A stretch of 1,349 nt of DNA from a phage. Shown here one piece after another: positions 1 to 1,349 of this stretch. The translations under genes and the position numbers were made by a program. The notes under the pieces are model-generated. The model did not search any database, was not told the DNA's origin, and worked only from the letters and a program-made list of their open reading frames with translations. The stretch is from the sequence record AF017627.1; one strand, written 5' to 3'. How positions within the stretch are numbered: the stretch's first letter is position 1; each line of letters begins with the position of its first letter.

Positions 1-165
1 ATGTTACGCCACATGGGTTGGACTGAAGCCGCAGACCTGATTGTTAAAGGTATGGAAGGCGCAATCAATGCGAAGACCGTAACCTATGACTTCGAACGTC
101 TGATGGAAGGCGCTAAACTGCTGAAATGTTCAGAGTTTGGTGATGCGATCATCAAGAATATGTAA
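1..165 (+). CDS. icd: Isocitrate dehydrogenase (NADP-dependent), C-terminal 54 codons; 5'-truncated by the window edge
   Basis: Frame 1 translates without stops to [54 protein letters not shown], then TAA at 163-165. From memory this matches the C-terminus of E. coli Icd (...[36 protein letters not shown][D][15 protein letters not shown][E]NM) except at two residues. Not in the ORF track, presumably because it is short. Confidence 0.93.
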
Positions 166-188
166 TCACTACATGTGTTAAATATTGA

Positions 189-218
189 AACGGGCGTATA
201 ACACGCCCGTTGTTTTAT
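189..218 (+). terminator. Probable rho-independent terminator of icd
   Basis: Perfect 9-bp inverted repeat AACGGGCGT (189-197) / ACGCCCGTT (203-211) with a 5-nt loop ATAAC, followed by GTTTTAT (212-218). It sits about 25 bp after the icd stop. The upstream flank is A-rich (TATTGAAA), so it could terminate in both directions. Confidence 0.65.
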
Positions 219-232
219 GATGATGTAAAATC

Positions 233-268
233 TTCCCCAAAACTTTCCCCAAAACCCTTCCCCAAAAC
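233..268. repeat. Three direct copies of the 11-mer TTCCCCAAAAC (233-243, 245-255, 258-268); candidate integrase arm-type binding sites
   Basis: Read directly: tcTTCCCCAAAACtTTCCCCAAAACccTTCCCCAAAACtg. Copies are exact, with 12- and 13-bp centre-to-centre spacing (about one helical turn). They lie 11 bp from the int stop codon. The confidence refers to the repeat itself; the binding-site role is inference. Confidence 0.85.
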
Positions 269-278
269 TGGCTATTTT

Positions 279-1349
279 CTATGCTGTTTTGATATCTACG
301 ATAATCCAGTCTTTACCACGATCATCATTGTATCGGTCGGTCATTTTTCTGGATTTATGGCCTAACAACTTTTGCGTATCCAGACCCTGTTCCCGATATA
401 ACCGTTCTGACAGAGATCGCTGCTCATGAAATGTGGGCGCAGTTCCTGGCTCCCATTTTATGCCACATTTTTCCCTGGCCTTTTTAAAAGCCGTTGTAAG
501 AGTATTTGCAGAAACCTGGTCTCCTCTGTTTGCTTGAGAGGTAGTGTGACGGTAATGGACCAGATATTTACTAACAACAGCATCCCTGCACTGAGATATA
601 ACTTCACGAAGGGTAATATTCAGAGCATCGCATTTCAGGCTAAGCGGAATAGCAAGTTTTGAACCGGTTTTTTCCTGAGTAATGTGCAACATGTCGTCCC
701 ATATATCAGAGAATTTCAAATTGCAGATATCGCCTAAACGTTGTCCAGTAACAAGAGCAAGTAGCATGCCGCATTTTAAATAGGGCTGCCGTCTGCTTAC
801 GCTTTCAAATATTGCCTGCCATTCGGGCAGTGATAATCTTTGGCGGTTTACTCGATTTCGCGGTTGTTTTGTTGCCTGCGCTGGGTTAAATCCTGGCGGA
901 ACATGTCCTGCGTGTTGTGCTTCTTTGAAGACGTCGATCAACACCATTCTCACGACTTGCGCCATCCTGTTATGACCTTCAGCCTTTACAGCATCAATTA
1001 TTTCGGCAATATCAAGTGCGGTAATATCCTTGAGGTGTTGCATTCCACAATGCTCACGGAAAAGACGAATGGGTTTACCTTTTTGCCGATAGGAGTTGGG
1101 TTTTAGTTCATTATGTTGCAGCCTGTCCTCCTGGATAGAAATATATTTATCAAGCCATTCTGTCACCGTAATGTCTGAGCGCCTGCCTTTCATTCTTTCT
1201 AGACGCTCATTGACGCTTAATATTTGTCGGGTACGTTGTTCAGCAATAATGGTATTTGCTTCAGTAGCAACTTGTTTTGCTTCATTCTCATCAGTTCCTA
1301 AGCTATGAAAACGACCGGATAGTGGATGTTTGTATTGCCAATATACCTT
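279..1349 (-). CDS. int: Lambda-Int-family tyrosine site-specific recombinase (phage integrase); 5'-partial, N-terminus beyond the window edge
   Basis: The - strand frame is open from 1349 to the TAG at 279-281; I translated 1194-1349 by hand and found no stop. The C-terminus ...PTFHEQRSLSERLYREQGLDTQKLLGHKSRKMTDRYNDDRGKDWIIVDIKTA parallels lambda Int ...PTFHELRSLSARLYEKQ...HLLGHKSDTMASQYRDDRGREWDKIEIK, as recalled. Catalytic motifs are present: LVTGQRLGD (Arg), HEQR (His-x-x-Arg), LLGHKS (His), and Tyr in DRYNDD (codon 330-332). The upstream part ...KVYWQYKHPLSGRFHSLGTDENEAKQVATEANTIIAEQ... resembles the lambda Int N-terminal arm-binding domain (YYCYRDPRTGKEFGLGRDRRIAITEAIQANIELF). Confidence 0.93.
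   Translation of the reverse strand, partial: KVYWQYKHPLSGRFHSLGTDENEAKQVATEANTIIAEQRTRQILSVNERLERMKGRRSDITVTEWLDKYISIQEDRLQHNELKPNSYRQKGKPIRLFREHCGMQHLKDITALDIAEIIDAVKAEGHNRMAQVVRMVLIDVFKEAQHAGHVPPGFNPAQATKQPRNRVNRQRLSLPEWQAIFESVSRRQPYLKCGMLLALVTGQRLGDICNLKFSDIWDDMLHITQEKTGSKLAIPLSLKCDALNITLREVISQCRDAVVSKYLVHYRHTTSQANRGDQVSANTLTTAFKKAREKCGIKWEPGTAPTFHEQRSLSERLYREQGLDTQKLLGHKSRKMTDRYNDDRGKDWIIVDIKTA

Follow-up and report, generated by a model that had tools for sequence, protein, structure and literature searches.

Three exact copies of an 11-mer occupy the spacer between the 3' end of a phage integrase gene (int) and the end of icd in the stretch of DNA analyzed here (sequence record AF017627.1; 1,349 nucleotides, hereafter the window). 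This raises the question of what such a tandem repeat does at this place, and whether it represents the arm-type (P') sites of the integrase, as was proposed in a reading made from the letters and their open reading frames alone (the sequence-only reading). From the comparisons described below we find it highly probable (about 90%) that a lambdoid prophage of the phage 21 type has inserted in E. coli icd, that the window covers its attL junction, and that the triple repeat represents the P' arm-type sites of its attachment site.

The three copies of TTCCCCAAAAC were found where they had been reported, on the plus strand at 233-243, 245-255, and 258-268, with start-to-start distances of 12 and 13 bp. 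No exact copy was present in any of 200 dinucleotide-preserving shuffles of the window, and no further copy was found elsewhere in the window with up to two mismatches permitted. The full unit is a 12-13-mer, YYTTCCCCAAAAC, which starts two nucleotides further to the left in each copy (Table 1). The array is located 20 bp past the icd terminator stem and 10-11 bp short of the int stop codon. An ORF of 51 aa running across the repeats (210-365) was dismissed as an antisense overlap with int without support. A second exact direct repeat of 11 nt, ATGGAAGGCGC, is located within icd (window 52-62 and 103-113) and encodes the repeated peptide MEGA; it is most likely a coding coincidence.

Table 1. 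Features of the window, with the basis for each assignment.
Feature	Position	Strand	Remarks and basis
icd 3' end	1..165	+	54 codons and stop; prophage-supplied copy; ORF, annotated icd in CE10
attP/attB common stretch	2..219		Alignment of attB, attL, attR, and three attP sequences
icd intrinsic terminator	189..211	+	Hairpin, then T-run; terminator scan, terminator annotated in OL657228
P'1 TCTTCCCCAAAA	231..242	+	Putative arm-type copy 1, core-nearest; OL657228 annotation, shuffles
P'2 CTTTCCCCAAAA	243..254	+	Putative arm-type copy 2; OL657228 annotation, shuffles
P'3 CCTTCCCCAAAA	256..267	+	Putative arm-type copy 3; OL657228 annotation, shuffles
int, phage 21-type tyrosine integrase	279..1349	-	Codons 25-380 and stop; first 24 codons outside the window; ORF list
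int stop codon TAG	279-281	-	ORF list

Over the corresponding region, E. coli CE10, AR_0013, N32, and a fourth genome match the window at 100% identity, and IAI39 does so at 99.9%. Phage 21 (OL657228; att/int/xis region M61865) is 98.1% identical over positions 7-1349 and has an identical 37-bp array, while the other lambdoid phages ev017, 4A7, and 2E9 are 98-99% identical to the window. In OL657228 the same 37 bp (misc_feature 27563-27599) are annotated as "attP" with three subsites P1P2P3 and the consensus YYTTCCCCAAAA, and the neighbors of the array are an icd pseudogene fragment, a terminator, and a tyrosine integrase gene. The array, having been annotated before in GenBank for phage 21, is thus no new feature; it is the already known arm-site cluster of phage 21 attP. 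Motif and keyword searches of the literature returned no paper that describes the repeat sites, and attP is not discussed in the text of the phage 21 genome announcement. Among the 5426 complete genomes of E. coli, 1624-1679 (~31%) have a 21-type int adjoining icd. The 80 loci obtained in a scan of IMG/VR were all at least 98% identical to the query, most ended exactly at the int stop, and they contributed no new attP.

AF017626 (E. coli EC38; L002) is 100% identical to window positions 1-730, and its int is annotated as a pseudogene of two joined pieces, so that int in EC38 is interrupted beyond window position 730. The CE10 prophage (L005 and L008; 1284 kb to 1342 kb) is ~58 kb long, decayed, and composite, and contains a Mu-like prophage, several IS3 copies, truncated terminase/tail genes, and an iss fragment, with the sitABCD iron/manganese transporter located near attR.

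The neighboring gene, which the sequence-only reading had taken for a host gene, is icd as proposed, but the last 165 bp are supplied by the phage on integration and are not the host's own. This prophage-supplied end leaves icd intact upon integration. The icd terminator also falls within the attP/attB homology, and the phage therefore brings the last 54 icd codons plus the terminator. Phage-specific sequence begins to the left of position 2 and to the right of ~219. The crossover would be located near the left end of the common stretch, at approximately window positions 2-24. This range is based on the left edge of the homology and on K-12, where the attL of e14 already departs from its attR at the counterparts of positions 12 and 24. 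A mapping of the crossover by polymorphisms at positions 4, 6, 12, and 18 in the attL of MS 21-1 was withdrawn, because unoccupied attB alleles vary at 12 and 18. No Rfam family matched the window above threshold. The only hit, the tpke11 sRNA family at 170-234 (+) over the icd terminator, scored 20.8 bits (E 0.14) against a cut-off of 43 and was taken as chance.

Among the sequence checks that came with the arm-site proposal were one for the 11-mer on the other arm of the prophage and one for the repeat beside icd where no prophage is present, and both turned out in favor of it. A fourth exact copy of CTTTCCCCAAAA, co-oriented with the array, was found on the P arm of phage 21 (L001 1365-1376), ~131 bp to the left of where the homology with icd begins, and the attR of the CE10 prophage carries this copy too (L008 8368-8379). 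It is exact and co-oriented in the attP of phage 21, ev017, 2E9, 4A7, and 4C10, and related phages have it on P arms of two diverged types. The motif is thus present on both attP arms, with three int-proximal copies and one distal copy, and is unrelated to the core sequence. Relative to the crossover the P' copies are located at ~+229, +241, and +254, and the P copy at ~-131. The outermost arm copies together span 397 bp, and the P-arm copy is 360 bp away from its identical copy in the array.

At the empty attB of E. coli O104:H4 the array is absent next to icd, and the sequence past the terminator continues toward iraM. Among the matches listed from 5416 matching E. coli genomes, those without a 21-type int end at window position ~218. 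The array was seen only next to a 21-type integrase gene (1679 of 5426 E. coli genomes). By the empty-site comparison the array is phage-borne and not part of attB.

The P arm carries an IHF consensus, AATCAAACGGTTG, at ~-101, while a search of window 1-232, from the core to the array, found none even when one mismatch was permitted. No convincing inverted P2-like site was found in the 21-type attP; the candidate TTAGCCAAAA at -79 has two mismatches, which is chance level, and was rejected. Between the IHF consensus and the core, GTTGA-containing direct repeats were noticed, by eye only, on the phage 21 P arm (L001 1404-1424 and 1470-1481), namely GTTGAATAAA, GTTGATTTTG, and later GAGTTGAATACA; judged by sequence, these could be excisionase sites. 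Phage D2 (L144; OM475427, described as a "partial genome") has a P-arm site, CTTTCCCCA, fused to upstream icd coding sequence, and a run of N in its P' array. This arrangement has the appearance of an artefact that arose when reads from a lysogen were assembled.

An arm-type site requires an integrase with a domain to bind it, and the sequence-only reading had noted an N-terminal region resembling the arm-binding domain of lambda. In the full-length Int of CE10 (380 aa) this holds: residues 1-71 match PF09003, Arm-DNA-bind_1 (E 1.7e-28, score 98.9 against a cut-off of 22 bits), in addition to the catalytic PF00589, and the protein aligns with the lambda Int structures 1Z1B/5J0N from residue 5 over its full length (E 5e-56). 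Within the window int is present only from codon 25 on, and the arm-binding domain is therefore only partly inside it.

We proceeded to relatives of this Int, with one genome per species, and 48 loci encoding them were compared. About 40 of the 48, from ~25 named genera, have two to four direct copies of a motif past the int stop, usually three, with a spacing of 10-12 and then 13-14 bp and, in most loci, at 0-36 bp from the int stop. The motifs fall into four classes. The TCCCCAAAA class comprises integrases that are at least 67% identical, and is found in Kosakonia, Mangrovibacter, Trabulsiella, Buttiauxella, Arsenophonus, Edwardsiella, Proteus, Morganella, Providencia, Rosenbergiella, Pantoea, and Superficieibacter. 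Klebsiella, Phytobacter, and Kosakonia S29 have the TTATCAAAA class, Pectobacterium and Symbiopectobacterium the CAGTAAAAT class, and one distant locus the TTAGGAAAAT class.

Within the TCCCCAAAA class, 20 unique three-copy arrays were found to have nine positions invariant in both outer copies, while their flanks could not be aligned. In the P'1 position TCCCCAAAA is invariant in all 20 unique arrays of other genera and the P'3 copy is near-invariant across relatives, the middle copy being the least conserved (e.g., ATCCCCAAAA or CCCACCAAAA). A conserved A-run precedes the first array copy in most genera. The number of copies varies: E. coli MS 21-1 (L006 366-419) and Proteus penneri (L026) have four, with one unit duplicated, and Proteus hauseri (L022) has two. 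A megablast with the four-copy array as the query gave no match, probably owing to the low-complexity filter.

The array was also kept, with its 12/13 spacing, in the prophage of E. coli 21AR0133 (L007 2260-2560), the Int of which is ~80% identical and which has a different icd fragment and terminator. The icd 3' end supplied by this prophage encodes the protein …MEWFEAADL…NNKTV…IIANM. An E. coli-type icd terminator region was not found elsewhere in the 21AR0133 genome, and the attR end may therefore be lost.

The motif classes match the Int sequence directly after a conserved PNLY, i.e., residues 13-33. This segment is CKLDKRTGKVYWQYKHP in the 21 type, PL(F/Y)SRKVNKVYWRYKHP in the e14 type, and CF(A/T)DPRTKR.YWQYKHP in the Pectobacterium type, so that the motif co-varies with the N-domain of Int. 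Two loci, Citrobacter L051 and Aeromonadaceae L052, have core-binding domains that are just 28-31% identical to that of the 21 type, while their Int hairpins (residues 13-33) are 95% and 81% identical to it, and both keep CCCCAAAA. Neither flank shows an icd 3' end; L051 adjoins a rhodanese-like gene, as identified from the ORF translation. The e14-type integrases, conversely, are located at icd, have a hairpin that is 57% identical, and have a different motif. Since L051 and L052 keep the motif and the e14 type changes it at icd, the motif, as judged from these alignments, follows the arm-binding segment of Int (residues 13-33) and not the attB/insertion site or Xis. Together with the presence of the motif on both arms, its absence from attB, the PF09003 domain, and the 1+3 layout shared by phage 21 and e14, the sequence evidence supports an arm-type (P') reading of the repeats.

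The repeats could instead bind a recombination protein other than the Int N-domain, either the excisionase or a host bending protein. Lambda Xis likewise binds tandem direct repeats. Furthermore, only 28 of 77 residues are identical between the Xis proteins of 21 and e14, and because Xis differs between them, the motif difference of those two phages alone cannot separate Xis from Int. L051 and L052, however, retain CCCCAAAA with Int hairpins close to that of the 21 type despite a strongly diverged Xis, which has 34 residues identical to 21 Xis and scores nearer to e14 Xis. The placement of the motif on both arms, with three tandem copies by int, is moreover that of the arm sites of lambda Int. 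For a host bending protein, the array motif does not fit the IHF consensus. Binding by such a protein in place of Int is therefore considered improbable.

The array might also act as RNA or DNA structure, either as a 3' element of the int mRNA through which int expression is controlled or as a G-quadruplex on the G-rich strand (GTTTTGGGGAA three times). Transcripts of int would run through the array, and the minus strand has four G-runs if a loop of 8 nt is allowed. In e14, however, the array remains by the icd terminator, at the att site, though intE is 3.2 kb away, which speaks against a function that depends on the 3' end of int mRNA. The fourth copy on the far arm and the lack of an Rfam match above threshold do not agree with such an element either. 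As to the quadruplex, conservation does not extend to the fourth G-run, since three GGGG runs are all that most relatives have, and the motifs of the e14 and Pectobacterium types are not G-rich. We hold a structural role to be very improbable. It is hardly credible that the array is a functionless tandem repeat, made by chance or by slippage. The varying copy number in MS 21-1, Proteus penneri, and Proteus hauseri means that slippage does occur, but the empty outcome of the shuffles, the identical copy 360 bp off on the other arm, and the nine positions kept in both outer copies across many genera, where the flanks have diverged past alignment, all stand against this explanation, and the conservation pattern effectively refutes it. 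Taken together, we assign the three explanations about a tenth of the probability.

With the repeats read as arm-type sites of Int, a mechanism can be proposed by analogy with lambda. Int would be heterobivalent, its C-terminal domains binding and cutting the core inside icd, at approximately window positions 2-24, and its N-terminal arm-binding domain (residues 1-71) binding the TCCCCAAAA motifs, three of them int-proximal and one distal. By bridging arm and core sites, with bending of the DNA (by IHF on the P arm at least), Int would build the intasome and determine in which direction recombination proceeds. Once the phage has integrated, the triple array would be retained in attL, i.e., in the window, and the single copy would pass to attR. 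Both the physical binding of Int to the motif and the use of the individual copies in integration versus excision are here presumed to resemble what is the case for lambda.

Two points retain some interest, namely the unusual length of the P' arm and an apparent correspondence between hairpin and motif across the family. As a modestly useful by-product of the comparison, the 1+3 layout, shared by many enterobacterial genera, and the four motif classes offer a clean set of natural data for the encoding of specificity in arm sites, and the four classes tracking hairpin residues 13-33 could be a readable recognition code for orthogonal integrase design. The comparison of arm sites is also relevant to the integration vectors based on phage 21 attP/Int, which are in use as genetic tools (PMC8053113).

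Compared to phage 21, the array occupies the same place, with the icd' terminator on one side and the int stop on the other, and the single P-arm copy is the same as well. The two differ in that the window is a chromosomal prophage attL of the CE10 type, whereas the phage 21 record is a free attP; being an attL, the window contains the P' arm only, and the P-arm copy is found ~58 kb off at attR. Also, the CE10 prophage is a decayed composite and not phage 21 itself. A thesis from 1992 is said to have proposed repeated dodecamers of phage 21 as arm sites. The minimal attP of phage 21 was reportedly placed between 366 and 418 bp by Wang et al. in 1997, a span said to be such that it would just include the outermost "repeated dodecamers," which here span 397 bp.

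The cryptic prophage e14 of K-12 shares the icd attB and the 1+3 layout with the 21 type. Its array consists of three direct copies of (G)TTATCAAAA with a spacing of 11 and 13 past the icd terminator (L011 2366-2399), and its other arm has one GGTTATCAAAAC at ~-130 (L010 4207-4218) and an IHF consensus at ~-100. An alignment with the attP regions of phage 21 and e14, which had been suggested as a check, also favored arm-type sites: the layout was recovered in both, and the motif was identical in phage 21 and different in e14, (G)TTATCAAAA compared to TCCCCAAAA. The Int hairpin differs likewise (PLYSRKVNKVYWRYKHP in e14, CKLDKRTGKVYWQYKHP in 21), and inserted genes (ymfD, ymfE, and lit) put 3.2 kb between intE and the array. 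After its own TTATCAAAA array e14 carries an inverted 21-type core, gtagTTTTGGGGtagg (L011 2405-2425; CCCCAAAA on the opposite strand), which may be a relic or chance.

The comparison with lambda, from which the arm-site reading was drawn, gives both likenesses and differences. In the lambda sequence P'1-P'3 were found co-oriented and in tandem at +54 to +84, with a spacing of 10 and 11 bp and the last site overlapping the int stop, while P1 is co-oriented at ~-137 and P2 inverted at ~-106. The 21-type motif, TCCCCAAAA, is unlike the C/AAGTCACTAT of lambda, as had been anticipated, and the spacing of 12 and 13 bp differs as well. The reservation that the sites would be more than 230 bp from the core, further than in lambda, was well founded: with 165 bp of icd plus the terminator intervening, they are located at ~+229 to +254 relative to the crossover. 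The 21-type array hence departs from the lambda-like P' geometry, in which the tandem sites are no more than ~90 bp away from the crossover and an IHF site is located between. There is neither an inverted P2-like site nor an IHF consensus in the P' arm of the 21 type, and the hairpin of its Int after PNLY is longer by five residues. The long P' arm of 21/e14, without a recognizable IHF site, may point to a large DNA loop or a further bending factor. That the 21/e14 Int family combines an intasome unlike that of lambda, with P' sites acting from ~230-255 bp, and motif classes that can be read as a recognition code is a tentative proposal, and one we consider rather unlikely. What the 21 type shares with lambda is the set of three co-oriented tandem sites by the int stop, a distal co-oriented site (at ~-131, compared to ~-137 for lambda P1), PF09003 in the integrase, and an IHF consensus on the P arm.
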